Of a stretch of DNA of 51,371 nucleotides, positions 17,789 through 51,371 are shown piece by piece; position 1 is the stretch's first letter; each line of letters begins with the position of its first letter. This stretch comes from an uncultured Candidatus Saccharibacteria bacterium (GTDB taxonomy: Bacteria > Patescibacteriota > Minisyncoccia > Phycocordibacterales > SW-6-46-9): NCBI GenBank assembly GCA_964534365.1, contig CAZHOI010000001.1:254171-305541 (forward strand), written 5' to 3'. The notes beneath the pieces were generated by a model. It saw nothing but the letters and a program-made list of their open reading frames with translations. It had not been told where the DNA came from and did not search any database. The translations under genes were made by a program, and so were the position numbers.

Positions 17789-18223
17789 CTATTTTGTAAC
17801 TTCTACGCCCATTGATCGACAAGATCCTTCAATAATCTTGACCGCTGCATCCAGGTCATTGGCTGATAAATCAACCATTTTTCGATTAGCAATATCTTCT
17901 AGTTGAGATCGGGTAATTGAACCAATTTTATTAGTATTTGGTTTGCCACTACCTTGTTTTTTACTAATTGCTTTGAGGATTAGCGATGATGCCGGTGGGG
18001 TTTTGGTAACAAATTCAAACGATCGGTCTTCATAAACTGTGATTACAGTTGGGATAATGTCCCCCATTTGATCTTTGGTACGGTCGTTAAACTGATTGAC
18101 AAATTCGCCAATCGCAACGCCAGCTTGTCCTAGGGCCGGTCCCAGTGGTGGTGCTGGAGTAGCCTTGCCCGCTGGCACCGTTACCTTAACAACCTTTTGT
18201 ACTTTTTTCTTTTTCTTAGGCAT
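17789..18223 (-). CDS. rplK: 50S ribosomal protein L11
   Basis: [37 protein letters not shown]. Confidence 0.98.
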
Positions 18224-18316
18224 TTTACAGTTAAAAATTTTAGAAAATTTTTGCCTTATGGCATAGATTTATCTTTCACACTCTTTTGAAGATCGTTCAA
18301 AAAAGAATCTATTAGC
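18224..18316 (-). promoter_or_regulatory. Structured leader of rplK containing the GCTAATAGA...TCTATGCC motif
   Basis: Motif 18316-18260 followed by ATAAGGCA, an AT-rich hairpin and AACTGTAAA-ATG; shared with nusG, fusA and rpsG leaders. Confidence 0.75.
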
Positions 18317-22351: not shown

Positions 22352-22426
22352 AATTCTTTTTCGTTGATAATTCTAGAAAATTATCTGCCTCATGGCATAG
22401 ATTTATAGATAAATCTATGCCATGAG
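22352..22426 (-). promoter_or_regulatory. nusG leader; fully palindromic variant of the motif
   Basis: CTCATGGCATAGATTTAT-AG-ATAAATCTATGCCATGAG at 22389-22426, then GGCA and the AT-rich hairpin. Confidence 0.75.
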
Positions 22427-33802: not shown

Positions 33803-34005
33803 CAAGCCTCGAAAATCATTATGAATACGAATGTGAATTATCAAATCCCTTGGTTTGACTTTCGTCTCGCTAGGGATCAATAGCAATAGCATTTGAGAAC
33901 CAAATCCTTTGATTCGATACTTACGTATCTTACTCGGGACAAGTAAATAATTATAGTAGGTACTCTACTTTCGCTTTAAAATTTTAGAAAATTTATAAAG
34001 CTTAT

Positions 34006-34032
34006 GGCATAGATTTTTAAAAATCTATTAGC
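34006..34032 (-). repeat. Motif copy just 3' of the 23S
   Basis: GGCATAGATTTTTAAAAATCTATTAGC, adjacent to the same AAAATTTTAGAAAATTT hairpin seen in rplK and rpsG leaders. Confidence 0.85.
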
Positions 34033-34311
34033 ATTTACTTTCGAGTAAATACTTGTTTTGCCGTAGAAAGTAGATTGACCTGATGCGCACTTTTCCTACA
34101 AAGAAGCATGTGCGTCGACGAATTAGTACGCCACGGCTCAATACATTACTGTACTTCCACCTAGCGCCTATCAACCTGATCATCTCTCAGGGGTCTCAAA
34201 CGATATCTAATCTTGGAGGCGGCTTCGGACTTAGATGCTTTCAGCCCTTATCCGGTCCGAACATAGCTACTCGGCGGTGCCACTGGCGTGACAGCCGATA
34301 GACCAGAGGTT

Positions 34312-34343
<32 letters not shown>

Positions 34344-34382
34344 CTCTCCTCAAATATCAACGCCTACAGTAGATCAAGACCA

Positions 34383-34419
<37 letters not shown>

Positions 34420-34420
34420 T

Positions 34421-34454
<34 letters not shown>

Positions 34455-34530
34455 TCTCCAGCCCCAGGATGAGATGAGCCGACATCGAGGTGCCGAACAC
34501 CGCCGTCGCTCTGGACGCTTAGGCGGTACC

Positions 34531-34561
<31 letters not shown>

Positions 34562-35051
34562 GTGATCTCGAGCACCATCTGAAGGTTACTCTCGGTTCAC
34601 TAAGCTCTGCTTTCGCACCTGCTTGCGCTGTCACGCTCGCAGTCAAGCCGACTTATGCCCTTACACTATCGTCACGGTTTCCATCCGCAACTAGTCGACC
34701 TTTAGGCTCCTCCGTTACTCTTTAGGAGGAGAGCGCCCCACTCAAACTACCCAGCACAGTATGTCCCGATACGTTTTTGCCGTATAGGTTAGAATCTACA
34801 GAAGACAGGGGGAGTATCTCACTGGCGGCTCCAGTTCAGCTAGCGCTGAACCTTCAAAGCCTCCTCCCTATGCTGCACAAGCCCTCCATAGACCCAAACT
34901 GAACCTGTAGTAAAGCTCCCGGGGTCTTTTCGTCCCACTGCAGGTAACCGGCATCTTCACCGGTATAGCATTTTCACCGAGCTCTTCCTCGAGACAGTTC
35001 TCCAGTCGTTACGCCATTCGTGCACGTCGGAACTTACCCGACAAGGAATTA

Positions 35052-35090
<39 letters not shown>

Positions 35091-35113
35091 CGGGGCTTAT
35101 ATAGCCCAGCCCA

Positions 35114-35227
35114 ACAACACGCGAAGCACGTGTTGACAAACAACCAACTACAAACAACTTACGACAATTGGTTTTTGTCGTAAGTGGTAAGTTGTTAGTG
35201 GTAAGTAAACACATGTTCCATGTGTTG
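35114..35227 (-). other. 23S insertion, about helix 68
   Basis: Non-conserved ~114 nt with terminal AACAC/GTGTT hairpins and 7-nt-periodic arms. Confidence 0.8.
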
Positions 35228-35351
35228 CAGGACCGTCCATACTTAACCTTCCGGCATTGGTCAGGCGTCACCCCCTATACAGCCTCTTTCGAGTTCGCAG
35301 GGAGCTGTGTTTTTGGTAAACAGTCGCCAGAGAATCTTTAGCTGCGGCCCA

Positions 35352-35473
35352 GGTATCACGCTAGGCGTGATACACGGATAACTAATGACTCGGACTTATA
35401 ACCGGCACCATTTTGCTTGGGTTATAGGTTATTGTTATCAGTTACTCGTTAGTATCACACGCAGTGTGATACC
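35352..35473 (-). other. 23S insertion, about helix 63
   Basis: GTATCAC..GTGATAC hairpins at both ends; shares 24 identical nt with the helix-45 insertion. Confidence 0.8.
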
Positions 35474-36005
35474 CAGGCAGACCTTATCCCGAAGTTACGG
35501 TCGCTTTTTTGCCGAGTTCCTTGAGGAAGAATCACTCGTTCGCCTTGGTCTACTCGACCTGAACACCTGTGTTGGTTTGCGGTACGGACAATACAAATTT
35601 ATGCTTAGAAGTTTTTCTCGGCTAATTGCTCACTAGTTTTAGATCACCTAAAAGGCTCACGTCATGACATGCGTTGCGGTATATGGTATCCGGATTTGCC
35701 TAAATACCCCACTTCAGCTGCCAACCCCAATCCAATAAGGGGCACTAGCTACTAATCAGCGTCACTCCATCGCAACTTGCATTGGCCAGGGAATATTAAC
35801 CCTGTGTCCATCGCCTCCCCCTTTAGGGATCGGCTTAGGCCCGGCTAACCCGACTCTGATTAACATCGAATCGGAAACCTGGTTCTTTCGGCGTGTGGGA
35901 ATCTCACCCACATTGCGGTTACTCGTGCCAACATTCTCTCTTGTATCCGCTCCACCCCCGCTTACGCGTTAGGCTTCGGCGCTGAATACAATGCTCTCCT
36001 ACCAC

Positions 36006-36145
36006 TAGCGCACCTCACTCAAGTTCGGTTCGCTAACTAATAACTTATAACTTGAACTTATAACCGGCACCATTTTGCTATTTGGTTTTATTATTAGTCA
36101 TTGTTATCAGTTATTAGTTGCATCGAACCTCAGTGAGATGCACTA
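36006..36145 (-). other. 23S insertion, about helix 45
   Basis: Closing stem GCACCTCACT/AGTGAGATGC; TAAC-periodic arms. Confidence 0.8.
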
Positions 36146-36764
36146 ATCCGCAGTTTCGGTACTACACTTAGCCCCGATCATCTTCGGCGCGAAGTCCCTG
36201 AATCAGTGAGCTGTTACGCTATCTTTAACAGGTGGCTGCTTCTAAGCCAACTGCCTGATTGTCTATGGAACTTCACCTCCTTCATTGCACTTAGTGTAGA
36301 TTTAGGGACCTTAACTAGCGATCTGGGCTGTTTCCCTTTTGACCTGCGGAGCTTAGCCCCCGCGGTCTGACTCCCATGTTCTTGACCTCTCGGTATTCGG
36401 AGTTTGATTGGTCTAACGAGCTTGCGCCCTATTTAGACCATCCAGTGCTCTACCCCCGGAGGGAACACATGAGGCTAGTCCTAAAACTATTTCGGAGAGA
36501 ACCAGCTATTACCAGGCTCGATTAGCTTTTCACTGCTATCCACAGCTCATCCCCTCGCTTTGAACGACGAGTGGGTGCGGGCCTCCAGCGACATCTCTGT
36601 CGCCTTCACCCTGGCCATGGATAGATCGCCTGGTTTCGGGTCCGATACTTACGACGTTAATTTTCGCGCTTTCACACTTGCTTTCGCTCTGGCTCCAGAC
36701 CTTTTAGCCTTTAGCCCGCCATAAATATCGACTCGTTGGCTCATTCTTCAATAGGCACGCCGTC

Positions 36765-36872
36765 GAGGACATCACGCTACGCGCGATTGTCAAATAACAC
36801 ATATCATGGAGCAAATTGTTCCATGTTTTATGATTTGTGCTTTATGGCTATCACCCACAGGGTGATGCCCTC
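36765..36872 (-). other. 23S insertion, about helix 25
   Basis: ATCAC/GTGAT ends; 55/60 identity with the 37177-37291 insertion. Confidence 0.8.
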
Positions 36873-36923
36873 TCCGACTCCTTGTAGACACACGGTTTCA
36901 GGTCTATTTCACTCCCTTTGCCA

Positions 36924-36965
<42 letters not shown>

Positions 36966-37176
36966 ATCTCTAAAGATATTTAGCCTTACCAGTCAGTACT
37001 GGCAGATTCCTCCCGGCTATTCATGTCCGGAAGTACTCAGGAACAGAGACTATAGAGTTCTCGTAATTTCGCATACAGGACTATCACCCTCTATGGTTAA
37101 CCTTTCCAGGTTATTTTGCTATCACGAGAATTTGTAACTCTACCTACGTGAACGCAGAGTCTCTGCCCTACAACCC

Positions 37177-37291
37177 CGACGCATCACGCGAAGCATGATG
37201 CTCATGTAGCACATAACACGTATCTTGGAGCAAATTGTTCCATGTTTTATGATTTATGCTTCATGGCGATCACATTCCATGTGATGCGCCG
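37177..37291 (-). other. 23S insertion, about helix 16-18 region
   Basis: GCATCAC/GTGATGC ends with terminal hairpins. Confidence 0.8.
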
Positions 37292-37633
37292 GTTTGGGCT
37301 CTTCCCGTTTCGCTCGCCGCTACTCGGGGAATCGATTTTTCTTTCTATTCCTCTTGGTACTGAGATGTTTCACTTCCCAAGGTCAGCTTCCCGATGACTT
37401 ATGCATCGGAATTACGAGGTTTTACCTCGTAGGGTTTCCCCATTCGGAAATCCCGGGGTAAGTTTGTTAGGCAACTAACCCGGGCTTATCGCAGCCGTAC
37501 CACGTCCTTCATCGCTCTTTAGAGTCAAGGCATCCGCCGTGTGCCCTTAGTCGCAGACACTTCCTTATAGGAAAGCTGCGCACCAAGTCTTTTCTACACT
37601 CAACGATCCCGCTAGTCGGGATTGTTTCGTTAT

Positions 37634-37661: not shown

Positions 37662-37774
37662 GCACATAGACCAGTTGAGTGTAAAAATTTGATCGCTCCG
37701 CCTAGGGCGGAACTTGTAACACTACAATTATTTTCTACTTCCGCTTGGCAAAATTTAATTTTGCCGGCGCTTAT

Positions 37775-37803
37775 GGCATAGATTCTTTGGAGAATCTATT
37801 AGC
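37775..37803 (-). repeat. Motif copy in the pre-23S leader
   Basis: GGCATAGATTCTTTGGAGAATCTATTAGC on +. Confidence 0.85.
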
Positions 37804-42775: not shown

Positions 42776-44953
42776 CTAGCTACGGCTTTTGATGATTTCG
42801 CCTGCCACATTATCCGGCACTACCGCATAGTGGTCGAATTCCATCGTCATATTTCCCCGCCCCGATGTCATTGACCGCAGTTCAGTCGTATAACCAAACA
42901 TCTCGGACAGTGGCACCTTGGCATTAATTGCGGTATTTAACCCACGCTGTTCGCTGGCTTCTACCAATCCCCGCTTTGATGCCAAGTTTCCGGTAATATC
43001 ACCAATATATTCGTCTGGCACGACCACCTCGACTTTCATCATTGGCTCTAATAGTGCTGGCTTTGCTCGCTTGACACCCTGTTGAAATGCTTGGGAGCCA
43101 GCAATTTTAAAGGCGACCTCGGACGAGTCTACGTCATGGTAAGAACCATCAAACAGATCAACGGCAATATTCACCATTTTATAACCAGCCAATACTCCTC
43201 GATCCATAGCTTCTAGAATTCCTTTTTTAACTGCTGGAATAAACTCTTGAGGAATCACGCCGCCTTTGATGCTATTGGTAAATTCAAACACATCATCGCG
43301 ATCCACATTTTTAGGCACTTCTTCGTCTGCAACCGCCGCTGGATCGAATGGAGTAATCCGGATTTTTACGTGACCGTACTGACCCCTACCACCAGATTGC
43401 TTTATGTATTTCTCTTCCGCTTCGGCATCAGCTAAAATGGTTTCACGATAAGCAACTTGAGGCTTGCCAACATTTGCATCCACGCTAAATTCGCGCTTCA
43501 TTCGATCTACAATAATATCCAAGTGCAACTCGCCCATTCCCGAGATAATAGTTTCGTTAGTTTCTTCGTCAGAGGACACGCGGAAAGTCGGATCTTCGTC
43601 GGATAGTTTAGCCAGGGCAATTCCCATCTTTTCCTGATCAGCTTTCGTCTTTGGTTCGATTCGAAGCGAAATTACCGGTTGTCGGAATTTGATCTCTTCT
43701 AATATTACCGGATTATCTTCGTCACATAACGTATGGCCGATTTTGGCATCTTTCATCCCTACCATAGCCGCAATTTCACCCGCAAATACTTCTTTAACTT
43801 CCTCGCGTTTATCAGCCTGTAGTCGCACAATTCTACCGACTCGCTCTTTGGATCCAGTAGAGGCATTATAGACATATGAACCGGCCTCAACTTTTCCGGA
43901 ATAAACGCGGAAAAATGACAGCTGACCAACAAAAGGATCGGTTTGAAGTTTAAATACTAGGGCCGAAAACGGCTCGGCTGGATCAGAGGTTCTGGTAACT
44001 TCTTCTTCAGTTTCGGGATTTTTACCTTTGGCAGGTGGTAAATCTAGTGGTGATGGCAGGTAATCAACTACCGCATCCAGTACTAATTGAACCCCCTTAT
44101 TTTTTAGAGCAGAACCACAGTAAACTGGGAAAATAGCGTTGTTGATAACCGCTTTGCGCATTAGTCTTTTGAATTCTGCTAGATCAGGCTCATTGCCCTC
44201 CAAATATGCATTCATTGCCTCGTCATCTTGTTCTACTACTTTTTCCAACAGCTCGGCCCGATATTTTTCTGCTTGTGCGCGTAGCTCATCAGGAATCTCG
44301 GCCTGGCGTACCTCCATCCCCATATCACCTTCAAAATAATAGGCTTTCATCTCGACTAGGTTAATCACACCTTCATGCGCCTCTTCTTCACCAATAGGGA
44401 TTTGGGCGCGAATCGCATTTGGAGACAATCGATCTATAATCGACTGAAATGATCGATCGAATGATGCGCCGGTACGGTCCAGTTTATTGATAAAACACAA
44501 CCTTGGCACTTGTGCCTCCTCGGCGTAGCGCCAGTTGGTTTCTGATTGTGGCTCTACCCCAGCTACCGCATCAAATACCACTACCCCACCATCCAAAACA
44601 CGCATTGAACGCTGTACTTCGGATGTAAAGTCAATATGTCCCGGCGTGTCAATGATGTTAAACCGATGCCTAGCATCAGAATCACCATCAGTTGCCTGGG
44701 CAACCCCTTCTTCGTTTAACCTAGCGTGGGTCGGAGTCCAAAAACAGGTAATAGCCGCAGCCGTAATGGTAATGCCACGCTCGCGTTCTTGTTCCATCCA
44801 GTCGGTGGTTGTTTCACCATCGTGAACCTCACCAATTTTATGTGACATTCCGGTGTAAAACAGAATTCGTTCCGAAGTAGTGGTTTTACCTGCATCTACG
44901 TGGGCCACGATTCCAAAGTTGCGTACTTTTTCTAGAGGGTAATCTTTACTCAT
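42776..44953 (-). CDS. fusA: Elongation factor G
   Basis: AHVDAGKTT, ERERGITI, DTPGHIDF, NKLD, GMGELHL, PQVAYRE, KQSGGRGQYGH, GSYHDVDSS. Confidence 0.99.
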   Translation of the reverse strand: MSKDYPLEKVRNFGIVAHVDAGKTTTSERILFYTGMSHKIGEVHDGETTTDWMEQERERGITITAAAITCFWTPTHARLNEEGVAQATDGDSDARHRFNIIDTPGHIDFTSEVQRSMRVLDGGVVVFDAVAGVEPQSETNWRYAEEAQVPRLCFINKLDRTGASFDRSFQSIIDRLSPNAIRAQIPIGEEEAHEGVINLVEMKAYYFEGDMGMEVRQAEIPDELRAQAEKYRAELLEKVVEQDDEAMNAYLEGNEPDLAEFKRLMRKAVINNAIFPVYCGSALKNKGVQLVLDAVVDYLPSPLDLPPAKGKNPETEEEVTRTSDPAEPFSALVFKLQTDPFVGQLSFFRVYSGKVEAGSYVYNASTGSKERVGRIVRLQADKREEVKEVFAGEIAAMVGMKDAKIGHTLCDEDNPVILEEIKFRQPVISLRIEPKTKADQEKMGIALAKLSDEDPTFRVSSDEETNETIISGMGELHLDIIVDRMKREFSVDANVGKPQVAYRETILADAEAEEKYIKQSGGRGQYGHVKIRITPFDPAAVADEEVPKNVDRDDVFEFTNSIKGGVIPQEFIPAVKKGILEAMDRGVLAGYKMVNIAVDLFDGSYHDVDSSEVAFKIAGSQAFQQGVKRAKPALLEPMMKVEVVVPDEYIGDITGNLASKRGLVEASEQRGLNTAINAKVPLSEMFGYTTELRSMTSGRGNMTMEFDHYAVVPDNVAGEIIKSRS

Positions 44954-45023
44954 GTCTTTTTTCGTTAAATAATTTTATAAAAATTATTTGCCTCATGGCA
45001 TAGAAATTGTAATTTCTATTAGC
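44954..45023 (-). promoter_or_regulatory. fusA leader with the motif
   Basis: GCTAATAGAAATTACAATTTCTATGCC-ATGAGGCA-AT-rich hairpin-AACGAAAAAAGAC-ATG. Confidence 0.75.
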
Positions 45024-45192
45024 ATGTGCATTTAATCTTTTGTTTAATAATTTTAATAAATAGGTGTTATTGACGCGCTCGCTGTTATTAATAATAAAGG
45101 AGGCTAGTGTCAGGCCTGCACTATACCCGAAAAGGCTTGATTTTTGAAGTTTTATAGTTCACTATTTGACTGAACCACTAGCCAAGACACAC

Positions 45193-45605
45193 ATGTTGTC
45201 AAATTATCTCTCGCTGGAAATGTTCCTTGAGGCAAAAGCACGAGCATTATTAAGACTAGAAATAGACCAGAATTTTAATTTACGGGACCTACAATCTAAA
45301 GGTAGATATGGCCAAACTCTATATAGCCTTTTGTATTATATAAAACATCTATCGACTCCGGATTTTATGCAATTACAGAGTTTTCAATGGCATTTCTCGA
45401 CCTTAGAAAATTGGTAAGAGAATACCTTAAATTTAGACCCCATCCTTGCCCGCGAAGCTCTTCAAAGGCTTATTCAAGACTTGAAAAAAAAGGGCTGTTT
45501 AGGAAGAATGTCGAGCTTGTTGAACGCCCCGACACTGTGTTCGGGGCGTATTTTATTCTTTTAAATATTTACTCTAAATCCTGTATACTAATAACCAATG
45601 GGTAG
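45193..45605 (+). pseudogene. Two overlapping short ORFs (45193-45417 and 45387-45605), possibly one frameshifted orphan
   Basis: 31-nt overlap in different frames; a terminator-like CGCCCCGA/TCGGGGCG hairpin lies inside the second ORF. Confidence 0.3.
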
Positions 45606-45921
45606 ATTCGTTTACAATCAGCAGCAAAATAAAACCACTGTAGATGAAAATTTATTGCGGCAATCTGATGCCGACAAAGATATAGTGCAATATCACTCAC
45701 AAACCGAACCTTATGTGAGTAATAATTCTGGATTTAAACCAGGCAATCAAATTCAAAAATCAAATAATGTCAGCCACCAGAAACTATCATACTTAAAGAG
45801 CGAGATTGATTTCATGGTTGATGGATTTATGCGTGAATTAATTGATTTCGATTCATTTGGAAATCTGGACCCTCAAATTCAATCCGAAATCGCTAACCGC
45901 TACCCACAATTTTTCAATTAG
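45598..45921 (+). CDS. Hypothetical protein
   Basis: 107 aa; TG-TATACT 8 nt before ATG. Confidence 0.6.
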   Translation: MGRFVYNQQQNKTTVDENLLRQSDADKDIVQYHSQTEPYVSNNSGFKPGNQIQKSNNVSHQKLSYLKSEIDFMVDGFMRELIDFDSFGNLDPQIQSEIANRYPQFFN

Positions 45922-46014
45922 TTTTCAGCTAGAATATAACTGAATTTTGATTTAATAAATAAGAGCCTTGGGCTGGCAATTCCCTAGGCTCTATTAGTAA
46001 TTCTTCATGATGGT

Positions 46015-46329
46015 TTAGGTTAGCGGATCTTTTTCGATTATTTGCGAGACCTCGTAGGCGCTTAGCATGACATCATTGTCGCAATATTGCGCCTGATACG
46101 CTGTCGGATTATTTAACCATATCCTTAGATCGGCCGGATGCAAACCCAAATAGTGACAGCAACCATCGAAGAATTCTTGGGTAGGCTGTTTTTGCATGCA
46201 TTGTTTTCTGACGTAACCAAAACTATTTCCAAAACTCCTCTCAAATGCGGCAAAATCCATGCCACCTGATTCGGCGGCGCGAATTAGGTATAACCAAAAT
46301 CTACCAAGGTGCGTGATTTTCTTCATCAT
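46015..46329 (-). CDS. Orphan, possibly XRE-like HTH
   Basis: FAAFERSFGNSFGYVRK...QPTQEFF...YLGL resembles the XRE fold. Confidence 0.55.
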   Translation of the reverse strand: MMKKITHLGRFWLYLIRAAESGGMDFAAFERSFGNSFGYVRKQCMQKQPTQEFFDGCCHYLGLHPADLRIWLNNPTAYQAQYCDNDVMLSAYEVSQIIEKDPLT

Positions 46330-46420
46330 TTCAAAGAATGTATTAACCCCAACGATTGTAAGGTTAAAGGATGAAGGAGTTCCGAGTATTTATTATAGCA
46401 ATAAACTGGCTGGCTGGGGG

Positions 46421-46987
46421 TTAATTTGAAATTGAGTGCAATACAATTTTAAGCTGCGTAATCAACCTAGAAATCGAACTGCGCAATCTGGCAATTTTGT
46501 CAGAATCACCTTCAATCTCAGCGCGATCAGCAACTGAATGGTCAAGGTAAAATTGTCCAATTTCAGAATCGGTTGAGTAAAACTGACCATAACTAAATAC
46601 ATTGGTTTGGTAGTCGCGAACAACTTCAAATACCCCTTCTTCCCCTAAGCCACCAGTACTGTCGCATTGATCAGCAGTAGTGTCATCTTCATTTGGATCA
46701 GGCAACCGATGTTTGACCCAGAATTTTGCTGGGACTCTACCTTTGAGCACTTTTTTAGTCTCGATCTGATGTAATTCATAATTATCAATCACTTTTTCAG
46801 CTATGACTACTCCATGTAAAACTTGAGTATTAAAGTATTCACCCAAATAATCATCGTGCATTATTTCGTGAGCTCTTTCAGTAGTTTTGTCCCCGCAGTC
46901 CAATGCAAAGGTGGTCATTGGAGTTAAAATGGTAATTGCTAATCCCAGACTTAATAATATTGTTAAATAATTTATTTTTAATGTCAT
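46421..46987 (-). CDS. Secreted protein, possibly TIMP/NTR-like fold
   Basis: Signal peptide then ALDC; VLHGVVI...KKVLKG...C pattern. Confidence 0.65.
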   Translation of the reverse strand: MTLKINYLTILLSLGLAITILTPMTTFALDCGDKTTERAHEIMHDDYLGEYFNTQVLHGVVIAEKVIDNYELHQIETKKVLKGRVPAKFWVKHRLPDPNEDDTTADQCDSTGGLGEEGVFEVVRDYQTNVFSYGQFYSTDSEIGQFYLDHSVADRAEIEGDSDKIARLRSSISRLITQLKIVLHSISN

Positions 46988-47166
46988 AATTATCTAGACG
47001 AATGAAAGCCAAGTTTATTACAGGTGACCATAAGTTTACCAAATAAATTAATCTATAAGCCGGAAGGCTTAGTATCTTGATGAAGTAAGAGGAATTGAAA
47101 ATCTGCGTCGGATACATACCATGTAAATGTTTAACTGTGGGTGTATTTAGAATGAATATTTTGATT

Positions 47167-47247
47167 AGTTCAAGGCATAAAGAAAAACTAACCCGAGGCG
47201 TATACGTAATACGATGAGGGTCAGTTTTTCTGCAGTAACGCAGAAAT
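47167..47247. repeat. Fourth copy of the ~80-bp REP/MITE-like element, downstream of rpsG
   Basis: GTTCAAGGCATAAAGAAAAACTAACCCGAGGCGTATACGTAATACGATGAGGGTCAGTTTTTCTGCAGTAACGCAGAA closely matches 17469-17547. Confidence 0.85.
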
Positions 47248-47267
47248 CATTAAAATAGGCTTCTAAA

Positions 47268-47750
47268 TTACCAGGCGAAGTGGGCAAAGGCCTTGTTTGC
47301 CTCAGCCATACGATGAGTTTCTTCTTTCTTTTTAACCGCTGAACCTTCGTTGTTTGAAGCGGCTAAAATCTCGGCGGCTAGTACCTTTGAAAAGGCTTTG
47401 CCTTGAGATTTTCTAGTTTTTCGCGCGGCATCAGTAATCCAACGGAAAGCCAGCGATAATCGGCGATTTTGTTTGACCTCGCGAGGTACTTGGTAGTTGG
47501 CACCACCGACTCGGCGCGACCGGACTTCCATCATTGGTCCAACGTTTTTAATCGCTTCATTAAAGACTTGTAGGGGTTCATCATTTTTGGATTCTTTGGC
47601 TACAATGTCTAGTGCATCATAAACAATTGATCGGGCCAGGTTCTTTTTCCCGTCGAGCATGATGTAATTGATAAATCGGGCCAGGTTTTCTGATCCATAT
47701 TTAGGATCTGGTTTAATCGGGTCTTTCTTTTTAAGTGGTCGTCGTGGCAT
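47268..47750 (-). CDS. rpsG: 30S ribosomal protein S7
   Basis: MPRR start at 47750, [32 protein letters not shown]. Confidence 0.98.
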
Positions 47751-47822
47751 AACTTTTTTTACAGTTAGAAATTTTAGAAAATTTCTGCCTTGTGGCATAG
47801 ATTCTTTGCAGAATCTATTAGC
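47751..47822 (-). promoter_or_regulatory. rpsG leader with the motif
   Basis: GCTAATAGATTCTGCAAAGAATCTATGCC-ACAAGGCA-GAAATTTTCTAAAATTTC-TAACTGTAAA; nearly the same as the rplK leader. Confidence 0.78.
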
Positions 47823-48092
47823 TTTTGCTAACAATTTTCATTTGTTAATACGAAACGTGATTCAATAGATTAGGTTAAGAGCTGTTTCACCAACCTGGGA
47901 AATTATTTAAGCGGTCGCACCCCTTAATAATAGTTGATTACTACTAATCCTACTGATATTGAGTCAAGTTCGAGTGTTAATATACTTGAAAATTGTCGTT
48001 CAAACAAGCATATTACTAATGAACCTCCCTGCTCGATTCGAGCAATCACTTTCTGGGACGGCTCGCTCGTTTCCAGGTTTTCCCTAATACGA

Positions 48093-48425
48093 ATGTGGCT
48101 ACCAGACTGGATCATCAAACTTCTTCCTCATAAACCTCATGTCATTAATGCTGAAGTTGAATCAATAAAGCATTCTCTTGAAAAAAGAAGGCTCTATTAT
48201 ATTTGTAATATTGGGTTTGCTTTGCCACTAAGCTTAACCGAAAGGAAAAAACGTCGAAGTTCAGGAATGATACATAGAACTATTAAGTTTCCTAGTTGGC
48301 GGTATTATGGATTTAAGGTATTTAAACCACATGGTTACATGATGATTAGCTGTATAGAACTTTTTCCTGGAAGCAATACATGGAACGGGAAACCAATAGT
48401 GTTGAACATTACGCCTTTGTTCTAG
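48093..48425 (+). CDS. Basic orphan, cassette unit 1
   Basis: In-frame ATG at 48093 follows a promoter (TTGAAA-17-CATATT) and a leader homologous to that of 48601. Confidence 0.55.
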   Translation: MWLPDWIIKLLPHKPHVINAEVESIKHSLEKRRLYYICNIGFALPLSLTERKKRRSSGMIHRTIKFPSWRYYGFKVFKPHGYMMISCIELFPGSNTWNGKPIVLNITPLF

Positions 48426-48471
48426 ACCCACGACAGAACTCACATCAGTGAATTATGTTCGTGGGTTTTGT
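48426..48471 (+). terminator. Conserved 46-nt 3' hairpin, copy 1
   Basis: ACCCACGA...TCGTGGGT plus TTT; 42/46 identical to 48947-48992. Confidence 0.8.
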
Positions 48472-48600
48472 CAATTTCAGCGTTTGACAATTACTTACTA
48501 AATAAGCCATATTTGATTTAAACCGTCCCCAGTTCCGTTTTGCACGGACACCATTTGTCTGGGACGAGAACGCTCGTTTCAGATATTTTCCAACGTCAAT

Positions 48601-48891
48601 ATGTCCCCCTTGGCAATTACCCTTATTGCAAGTGTCTTATCGTATATTATTGCCAAAATCATCTCTGGTTACATTTTAGGTGATGGCCTTCCAGATCGCT
48701 ATCCAGTACTTACTAAAAATGAATGGCAGAAGTTAAAAATGCAACTGAGATTCATCAATCTTTTAGATTTGTATATCCCCCTGAACGTCTACCTTGTTTT
48801 AAGGCCTGAGAAACACGACAATTATACGATCAGTCTGATATTTATATGTTTGACCTGTTTTGTGGGCTTCATATTGGGCCGAATTACTTGA
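48601..48891 (+). CDS. Small membrane orphan, cassette unit 2
   Basis: 96 aa with N- and C-terminal hydrophobic helices. Confidence 0.65.
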   Translation: MSPLAITLIASVLSYIIAKIISGYILGDGLPDRYPVLTKNEWQKLKMQLRFINLLDLYIPLNVYLVLRPEKHDNYTISLIFICLTCFVGFILGRIT

Positions 48892-48946
48892 GAAGCCACG
48901 GTAGATAAATTCTACCCACTATACGGAGGAAATTATCTGTAAAAAA

Positions 48947-48992
48947 ACCCGCGACAGAACTCACGTCTGTGGATTATGTTCGTGGGTTTTGT
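48947..48992 (+). terminator. Conserved 46-nt 3' hairpin, copy 2
   Basis: ACCCGCGACAGAACTCACGTCTGTGGATTATGTTCGTGGGTTTTGT. Confidence 0.8.
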
Positions 48993-49040
48993 TGTTTTCG
49001 ATGTAAGTTATAATAAAAATATAAACGTTAAGAAAATTTT

Positions 49041-49694
49041 ATGCCATTAGGAAACTATAGTTTTGGAAAAGGAGGTGCCGAGAAAAATCCGATTAGCCAT
49101 CCCCATACTGAAGAGTCTAAACCTGAAGGTCAGGAAGGAGTTCATAGAGGCTACGTTAATAGTGATACAGGAGAAGATGAATTCATCCAGGATATTGAGA
49201 GACCGCCTTCTCAGGATGACTTTGAGCGTTCTAATGAGCGAGCGTCGGAATGGTGGTTGGAAAAAATAACGGTTTTACAAGAAAGGTTGACTAAAATGAG
49301 AGAAGCGCGCGCTGAAGCTGAGGAGCTTGAAGATCAATTACTGTCCCAAATTGATGACGTATTAAAAGATGCACGCAAATTTGATTCTAGAAAAACTACC
49401 TACCCTGGTCATAAAATAGTTTATAAAGATGAAAAGGGCAAAACTAACAAAGTTGAATACGAAATAAATGCTAGAATCCCAACCATTAGAGGCCACGAAT
49501 CGGATAATCGCACTCCTGGGGAGAAAAATCGTGACAGAGGTAGAAAAGAAAAAACCAATTGGCGTGAAAATCAAAAATTCGCTGAAAGCCATACCTCGAT
49601 AAGTTCGAACGGAGTGGAGGTTAGTTCATTGGAAAGCTTAATCGATGAAGACAATGGCGATTACATTCCTCTAAGCAATTTTAGAAAAAATTAA
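49041..49694 (+). CDS. Charged hypothetical protein with coiled coil
   Basis: 217-aa hydrophilic ORF. Confidence 0.7.
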   Translation: MPLGNYSFGKGGAEKNPISHPHTEESKPEGQEGVHRGYVNSDTGEDEFIQDIERPPSQDDFERSNERASEWWLEKITVLQERLTKMREARAEAEELEDQLLSQIDDVLKDARKFDSRKTTYPGHKIVYKDEKGKTNKVEYEINARIPTIRGHESDNRTPGEKNRDRGRKEKTNWRENQKFAESHTSISSNGVEVSSLESLIDEDNGDYIPLSNFRKN

Positions 49695-49747
49695 AAACCA
49701 ACTTGGTGTCGGTTATTTGTCATAATCATTAGTTAAAAGTTACCCCT

Positions 49748-50161
49748 CTAATCGCCTTTTGGTTTTTTAGTTCCGTATCGTGATCGCGCATTTTGCCGAC
49801 CCTCTACCCCGGTGGCGTCCAGTTTTCCTCGTACCACAGTATAGCGAACCCCAATATCTTTTACACGACCGCCTCTGATCAGCACTACCGAGTGTTCCTG
49901 AATCTTGTGACCCTCCCCAGGAATGTAGGCAGTTACCTCGGCCCCGTTAGTTAAACGAACCCTAGCAATTTTACGTACTGCCGAGTTAGGTTTTTTAGGA
50001 GTTTTAGTAGTCACTTTGGTACAAACCCCGCGTTTAAAAGGAGAAGGATAAAAGGTTGGTCGGTTTTCCAAGGTATTATAACCGCGGTTTAATGCCACCG
50101 TTTTGGATTTACGGGTTTTTGATTTGCGACCTTTGCGAACTAGCTGATTTATTGTGGCCAT
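49748..50161 (-). CDS. rpsL: 30S ribosomal protein S12
   Basis: [44 protein letters not shown]. Confidence 0.98.
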
Positions 50162-51202: not shown

Positions 51203-51371
51203 ACAAATCACAAATCACAAATCACAAATCACAAATCACAAATCACAAATCACAAATCACAAATCACAAATCACAAATCACAAATCACAAATCACAAATC
51301 ACAAATCACAAATCACAAATCACAAATCACAAATCACAAATCACAAATCACAAATCACAAATCACAAATCA
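51203..51371. repeat. Perfect heptamer tandem repeat (ACAAATC)n, about 24 copies, running off the window end
   Basis: Read directly from the sequence. Confidence 0.97.

Follow-up and report, generated by a model that had tools for sequence, protein, structure and literature searches.

Phage morons are autonomous promoter-ORF-terminator units (ORF, open reading frame) inserted between conserved genes. In T4-type phages, promoter-early stem-loop (PeSL) cassettes occur about 50 times per genome, where they recombine, shuffle genes and give rise to mini-circles (Arbiol et al., 2010, PMC2839356). These two designs appear to be the closest known to the element described here, two head-to-tail units on the plus strand (47986-48992) of a 51,371-nt stretch of DNA, hereafter the window, from an uncultured Candidatus Saccharibacteria bacterium (assembly GCA_964534365.1, contig CAZHOI010000001.1, positions 254,171 to 305,541). 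The window comes from contig C1 of a genome of 755,701 bases in 15 contigs, with 40% G+C and a listed completeness of 97%. Each unit consists of a promoter-like site, a leader, a single ORF and a 3' hairpin with a T-tract (Table 1), and the second unit begins 12 nt past the 3' element of the first. The flanks of the two units are homologous and their bodies are unrelated. It is a real but modest feature, a two-member expression frame around orphan ORFs in a rare insertion between the ribosomal protein genes rpsL and rpsG. We see about an even chance that it represents an expression frame duplicated locally around a pair of orphan genes of recent or foreign origin inside this insertion.

The flanks are conserved to different degrees, with 91% identity in the terminator-like 3' elements, about 80% in the leader core and a lower value in the promoter. 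The two 3' elements agree at 42 of 46 positions, and each forms a long hairpin with UUUUGU after it (folding energies -20.2 and -20.3 kcal/mol, z -3.9 and -4.1). Both have the GC-rich hairpin and subsequent U-tract at a gene end that define intrinsic (Rho-independent) terminators, and are predicted to work as such. The original prediction held that the changes within this 46-nt hairpin keep the pairing. Of the four differences, two replace an A-U by a G-U pair in stems and two fall in the inner loop; the changes are thus wobble-compatible, but compensatory changes on both sides of a stem are absent.

The leaders have a common core of about 35 nt, a hairpin and then TTTTCC, and the blocks TCTGGGACG, CGCTCGTTTC and TTTTCC follow each other in the same order in both. 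TTTTCC ends exactly 9 nt ahead of the ATG in each unit (48078-48083 and ATG 48093; 48586-48591 and ATG 48601). Local alignment of the 5' regions scores 30, compared with 14.6 +/- 2.2 in dinucleotide shuffles (0/2000 reach 30) and 14.5 +/- 2.2 in random windows of the genome (0/3987). Since there are 1- and 2-nt indels within the leader similarity and a stop at 48514 closes the frame upstream of ORF2, this conservation is non-coding. A short upstream ORF as the conserved object was considered and rejected, the 22-codon frame being present in leader 1 alone. Further upstream, both units have a sigma-70-like promoter box. Such boxes alone are weak evidence, because the 2.1 kb examined contain 10 promoter-like sites against 5.8 +/- 2.2 in shuffles.

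The bodies between these flanks, of nearly the same size at 333 and 346 nt, have nothing recognizable in common. Comparison of the units by blastn and tblastx matches the flanks alone, and a global alignment of the bodies scores -68, the shuffle mean being -59 +/- 8, with 886 of 1000 shuffles scoring at least as well. BLASTP likewise detects no similarity between the ORF1 and ORF2 proteins (E 0.8). ORF1 is basic and predicted to be soluble (isoelectric point 10.07; grand average of hydropathy, GRAVY, -0.14), and the ORF2 product has three predicted helices (GRAVY 0.68). Alignments, shuffles and body comparisons therefore confirm what had been claimed from the sequence at first sight, that a homologous promoter, leader and 3' hairpin surround unrelated ORFs, and the predicted properties of the two products agree with their description as a basic soluble protein of 110 aa and a membrane protein of 96 aa without mutual similarity. 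One detail is corrected: the ATG of ORF1 lies at 48093, not at 48094.

Table 1. Features of the two units and of the surrounding rpsL-rpsG region, in window coordinates.
Feature	Position	Strand	Description or basis
Unit 1	47986-48471	+	promoter-like site, leader, ORF1, 3' hairpin and T-tract; 486 nt
Unit 1 promoter-like site	47986-48014	+	TTGAAA-17-CATATT; promoter scan, aligned with unit 2 site
Unit 1 leader	48021..48092	+	helix P1 (UCCC/GGGA) around hairpin P2; conserved core 48051-48083 (hairpin and UUUUCC)
ORF1	48093..48425	+	110 aa, basic, orphan; codon score -0.037
3' element 1	48426-48471	+	hairpin 48426-48466 and T-tract, intrinsic-terminator type
Minus-strand promoter-like box 1	48480..48452	-	CTGAAA-17-CATAAT; overlaps 3' hairpin 1
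Unit 2	48484-48992	+	promoter-like site, leader, ORF2, 3' hairpin and T-tract; 509 nt
Unit 2 promoter-like site	48484-48513	+	TTGACA-18-CATATT; promoter scan
Unit 2 leader	48520..48600	+	helices P1, P2; conserved core 48557-48591 (hairpin and UUUUCC)
ORF2	48601..48891	+	96 aa, three predicted helices, orphan; codon score -0.001
3' element 2	48947-48992	+	hairpin and T-tract, intrinsic-terminator type
Minus-strand promoter-like box 2	49001..48973	-	TCGAAA-17-CATAAT; overlaps 3' hairpin 2
ORF3	49041..49694	+	217 aa, orphan, native-like codon usage; codon score 0.250; own TATAAT box 49011-49016
Genome-specific 2.0-kb insertion between rpsG and rpsL	47751..49747		gene spacing in relatives
rpsG (ribosomal protein S7)	47268..47750	-	start taken at ATG 47750; S7 query matches relatives, E 1e-50 to 1e-60
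Housekeeping promoter/leader module copy	47754..47831	-	directly upstream of rpsG, left insertion edge; repeat families D2, D3, D7
Terminator-like hairpin	49696..49714	-	just downstream of rpsL; hairpin/promoter scan
rpsL (ribosomal protein S12)	49748..50161	-	relatives match at E 1e-52 to 1e-73
fusA	42776..44953		follows rpsG side

Why would two unrelated bodies stand in one and the same frame? In the explanation that we favor, the locus comprises two adjacent self-contained transcription units, in each of which a sigma-70-type promoter and a leader precede a single orphan ORF and an intrinsic terminator closes the unit. Local duplication of a whole unit or of its regulatory flanks would have made these flanks paralogous. 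The bodies would afterwards have been replaced, or have diverged past recognition, and promoter, leader core and terminator would have been kept by selection or gene conversion. Local duplication is the most economical history because the units and bodies are of near-equal length, their parts have the same order and orientation, and they lie in tandem; the near-equal bodies also fit duplication of a unit better than capture of arbitrary cargo. A plainer version, the tandem duplication of one fast-evolving gene whose coding part has become saturated and whose regulatory ends are under purifying selection, would account for the similar lengths, the common order and orientation and the graded conservation of the flanks. 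We consider it very unlikely, however, given that the 333-nt body lacks similarity in any frame while the loop positions of the hairpin are largely kept, and that one product is predicted to be soluble and basic and the other a three-helix membrane protein.

In the favored explanation, the common leader would most likely put both genes under one control. The 5' helix (UCCC/GGGA, enclosing a small hairpin) may compete with the downstream hairpin for the segment GGGACG, and the downstream hairpin, with UUUUCC between it and an ATG 9 nt further on, would serve as a transcription attenuator or occlude the start site. The P1/P2 fold has energies of -13.3 and -13.9 kcal/mol in units 1 and 2, and the competing core hairpin, which draws on GGGACG as well, -8.6 and -15.8 kcal/mol. 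The stem sequences of P2 differ between the units, yet pair in both. The layout could thus fit a terminator/antiterminator attenuator or a switch that occludes the start site. Rfam 15 has no match in the window at gathering score, and at E <= 10 the region 47900-49060 gives four matches, every one of them outside the leaders and far short of its gathering score. The leader is a candidate regulatory RNA in a bacterial group whose gene regulation is almost unknown.

Length and position favor reading ORF1 and ORF2 as protein genes. Each spans the distance from the end of the leader to near the terminator, and among 3000 dinucleotide shuffles a sense-strand ORF as long as ORF1 arises in two and one as long as ORF2 in 19. 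Neither has a Shine-Dalgarno sequence, which is normal here because tetramers of this kind precede only 10 of 411 long ORFs genome-wide (they are commoner, at 6%, in random 15-mers); start regions throughout the genome are A/U-rich and G-poor. An RNA-library contig matches 48215-48425, within ORF1, exactly over 211 nt. The contig is a weak hint of expression, being unstranded and possibly a product of DNA carry-over. Nothing in the library covers the remainder of the 3-kb stretch (rpsL, rpsG, ORF2 and ORF3 included) exactly, which is uninformative either way.

Homologues were sought widely. None was found for ORF1 among 1.84 billion representative proteins, nor for ORF2 or ORF3 in a word-indexed protein search. 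ORF2 has five weak matches in 300 same-order genomes, two of them interrupted by stops and none credible given that number of genomes. Pfam, PHROGs, PADLOC and NCBIfam offer nothing credible for any of the three ORFs, and the ESM Atlas holds no usable match to ORF1 and scores of 0.83 or lower for ORF2.

Several observations weigh against the favored explanation. Simple divergence explains poorly a terminator of 91% identity beside bodies without residual similarity, a combination that needs replacement of the body, gene conversion or a sequence-specific role of the hairpin. Promoter-like boxes are frequent in AT-rich DNA such as this. Unit 1 has a weak core hairpin, the two leaders do not share a minimum-energy fold, and two copies only allow no check by covariation or by comparison of relatives. 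By codon usage, ORF1 (-0.037) and ORF2 (-0.001) resemble spurious ORFs (mean -0.016, sd 0.087, n = 84) and not real gene segments, which average 0.212 (sd 0.075, n = 1311). Recognition by a protein language model is low (1590 and 1707, where 91 of 100 known-family proteins reach 2300), and single-sequence structure models are of low confidence (predicted local distance difference test, pLDDT, 43.6 and 59.7). The frame of ORF1 stays open for 53 codons further upstream (47934-48092), through promoter and leader, and one public annotation has a 163-aa form starting at TTG 47934. Finally, the unstranded RNA-library contig may derive from carried-over DNA.

Spurious-range codon usage, the low language-model recognition, the low confidence of the structure models and the lack of homologues would all be expected if the ORFs were not translated at all, the units being two non-coding transcripts of about 455 and 475 nt, or decaying remnants, with conserved ends and incidental frames. 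We hold this to be unlikely, though a serious rival: frames of 110 and 96 codons running from leader to terminator are as rare in shuffles as given above, the ATG keeps its exact 9-nt distance from TTTTCC in both units, and there is no Rfam family match. Whole-unit RNA folds are unremarkable (z -0.6 and -1.75), which also speaks against a structured non-coding RNA, an idea that we dropped. We read ORF1 and ORF2 as young or foreign protein genes, on evidence that is mixed.

The units, together with ORF3, lie in a genome-specific insertion, as rpsL and rpsG are adjacent in relatives. The gap between these genes measures 1997 nt here, compared with 7-150 nt in 11 of 11 related genomes that have both genes (a twelfth relative has no S7 match). 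In 70 of 70 metagenome loci with both genes it is an estimated -7 to 413 nt; 80 loci had been fetched by S7, 10 of them with too little upstream DNA for rpsL. The pair is therefore adjacent in all 81 relatives examinable. L032, the closest relative found, has an S7 sequence 96% identical, and its contig ends inside rpsG, before the junction. Both units run head-on to rpsL and rpsG, and ORF3 lies outside the shared promoter, leader and terminator frame.

The left edge of the insertion carries a copy of a different repeated sequence, a module of 80-100 nt that reads GCTAATAGATT, 6-8 nt, AATCTATGCCAT.AGGC and then TTTTCTAAAATTT, and that holds a 7-nt inverted repeat. It has 30 nhmmer matches genome-wide at E <= 1e-3; the copies in the window (47754-47831, 44955-45032, 37770-37803, 33964-34041, 22357-22403 and 18223-18269) precede rpsG, fusA, the 23S and 5S rRNA genes, nusG and L11. 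The module is probably the promoter/operator of the housekeeping genes of this lineage. With one copy before rpsG and a terminator-like hairpin after rpsL, the operon has been rewired around the insertion. At this rare break of the rpsL-rpsG pair, rpsG has been re-equipped with a copy of the housekeeping promoter module. Since some 30 unrelated genes have this 80-100-nt module in common, shared regulatory modules need no mobility in this genome. A second break in the str operon, between rpsG and fusA (44954-47267), consists of about 2.3 kb of orphan ORFs. One of them, a 188-aa ORF on the minus strand (46421..46987), has a signal-peptide-like start and, judged by eye, a 184-aa look-alike at the same position in L032 (445-999).

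Are the flanks of the two units found anywhere else? In the 756-kb genome itself, blastn and nhmmer recover just two copies each of the leader and the hairpin, and a DNA search of 40 relatives yields chance-level matches of 15-38 nt only. The leader core pattern, with up to two mismatches, matches 42 times in 37 of 400 same-order genomes, against about 70 matches for the reversed control. In scans with exact patterns, the terminator has no match in metagenome or viral contigs. The leader pattern has five in viral contigs, none in a leader context; these read as coding sequence, and four of the five are copies of one sequence. Leader plus TTTTCC is absent from species-representative genomes, in which a pattern of the hairpin arms hits 45 loci without a similar interior, generic terminators or chance matches. 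This genome and very close ones may be missing from the records scanned with these patterns. Phage and plasmid records have no match at blastn sensitivity, and searches of the literature for comparable chromosomal cases listed no such twin units. The element is thus unique in the material searched.

Signs of movement were equally lacking. The 37 window ORFs that reach 110 aa include no integrase, transposase or reverse transcriptase gene. The tyrosine recombinases, Y1 transposases and single reverse transcriptase of the genome lie at least 66 kb off or on other contigs, and the Phage_integrase matches (on C4, C5 and C1:189-194 kb) are more than 100 kb from the locus. Contigs from three DNA runs of one sample, two of which may be the source of the assembly, cross the locus unbroken and contain no repeat joint, excision, empty site or circle, although contigs hide rare forms. 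The proposal of a conserved expression or mobility frame with exchangeable cargo consequently survives in its first half, the homologous flanks around unrelated bodies being a shared expression frame; its second half is not supported, as the same flanks were found around no other cargo in the genome, relatives, pattern scans or phage and plasmid records, excised circles and empty sites did not appear in the contigs, and a co-occurring recombinase or reverse transcriptase was found no nearer than 66 kb.

These results bear on a reading in which the units are portable expression cassettes, with the junction of hairpin, promoter and leader as a recombination joint that, like PeSLs or more loosely integron attC sites, swaps orphan genes, possibly via small circles. 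Such a joint would be compact, since terminator, promoter and leader between the two orphan genes occupy about 175 nt (48426-48600). The hairpin copies, direct repeats 521 nt apart, bracket unit 2, and the locus interrupts a gene pair that is otherwise constant. PeSLs offer a precedent, being described as a promoter plus terminator stem-loop, mostly upstream of ORFans, that recombines and gives mini-circles (PMC2839356). PeSLs, however, occur about 50 times per phage genome (PMC2839356), against two copies here and a third in none of the material searched, and the near-equal body lengths, the lack of a recombinase gene in the window and the unbroken contigs all argue the other way. We regard this reading as quite improbable. 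A stronger form, a chromosomal counterpart of PeSLs that loads, expresses and exchanges new or foreign ORFs by recombination between copies, as an orphan-gene nursery within a highly conserved operon of ultra-small genomes, is very improbable in our judgment. Nothing found here supports the mobility reading.

The minus strand suggests one more arrangement. Promoter-like boxes overlap the 3' hairpins at homologous positions in both units, each with 9 of 12 consensus positions, and could start RNAs complementary to the 3' end of each ORF. The units might then be toxin-antitoxin-like modules under antisense RNA, for which the small, hydrophobic ORF2 would be a suitable toxin. This is extremely unlikely, as boxes of that quality abound in such DNA, a defence-system library has no match, ORF1 is not hydrophobic, and type I toxins are typically shorter than either ORF. 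What the locus has of a type I system are weak antisense promoter-like boxes only, and the RNA contigs lack strand information.

Other repeats and insertions were noted in the window and genome. The 23S rRNA gene (34104-37560) carries insertions, as it is 3457 nt long against a model of 2925 positions, and contains paired 78-nt repeats at 36791 and 37210 and a 133-codon ORF (36736..37137). From 51203 to 51371, the end of window and contig, runs a perfect 7-nt tandem repeat, ACAAATC, which reads as QITNHKS repeats in two frames. The genome has five Y1_Tnp matches in 756 kb. On contig C5 (5702-6350), a Y1 (HUH) transposase-like gene with the motif HYHLL lies between two copies of a different 30-nt hairpin; the neighboring gene encodes a product with a GSGKTT P-loop motif and may be TsaE-like. 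On contig C7 (49-634 and 1293-1919), the sole reverse transcriptase gene stands beside two 116-nt repeats of 84% identity, with many differences where one copy has A, which resembles the template/variable pair of a diversity-generating retroelement.

If the favored explanation holds and there was local duplication only, the locus would be a small case of orphan genes gaining ready-made regulation. Should the flanks recombine after all, promoter-plus-hairpin junctions of ultra-small bacteria would be tied to the PeSL mechanism of phages, and orphan genes would have a concrete and testable way of arising and being exchanged.

How does the locus compare with known systems? Integron cassettes are likewise tandem single-ORF units, each closed by a similar imperfect hairpin. 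They differ from the two units, which are the only members, have their own promoter-like boxes instead of being promoterless and expressed from a common Pc, and have no variable cargo found elsewhere; an IntI-type tyrosine recombinase beside the array is lacking among the window ORFs of 110 aa or more. The attC core consensus is RYYYAAC ... GTTRRRY. The hairpin arms here read ACCCACGAC ... GTTCGTGGGT, and GTTCGTG has C and T at purine positions, so the original view of a locus without attC cores or visible integrase stands. REP/RAYT (repetitive extragenic palindromic sequences and their associated tyrosine transposases) and IS200/IS605 systems are a poor match too, as the hairpin of the units is found nowhere else in the genome.

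The leaders resemble those of riboswitches and attenuators in having mutually exclusive helices that share GGGACG, and a downstream hairpin followed by a U-tract before the start codon; they differ in the lack of an Rfam match, in being two examples only and in the weak hairpin of unit 1. The genome's own housekeeping module (GCTAATAGATT..AATCTATGCCAT..TTTTCTAAAATTT) is similar in design, a promoter and leader common to unrelated genes, with a copy at the edge of the insertion. It has another sequence, however, occurs in about 30 copies before translation and rRNA genes, and lacks a shared terminator.

Morons come closer. Like them, each unit is autonomous, has a putative promoter and terminator of its own, interrupts a pair of genes that adjoin each other in relatives and would encode an uncharacterized accessory protein. 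Differently from morons, the units have no prophage setting, ribosomal and housekeeping genes lying on both sides and no credible match to PHROGs or phage DNA being found, and homologous flanks of two units fall outside the moron definition. From PeSLs the locus differs in its bacterial chromosomal location, its two copies in 756 kb instead of many dispersed ones in hyperplastic regions, its extra conserved leader hairpin and its lack of similarity to any phage record. PeSLs recombine; here the contigs of the three DNA runs, which drop rare forms, show no repeat joint. A PeSL is a compact intergenic terminator stem-loop with a sigma-70-type promoter, placed directly before orphan genes where the genome is variable, repeated copies flanking unrelated genes. 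The junction between the two units appears to match this design, with the hairpin at 48426-48466, a T-tract, the -35 box at 48484 and the orphan ORF2.

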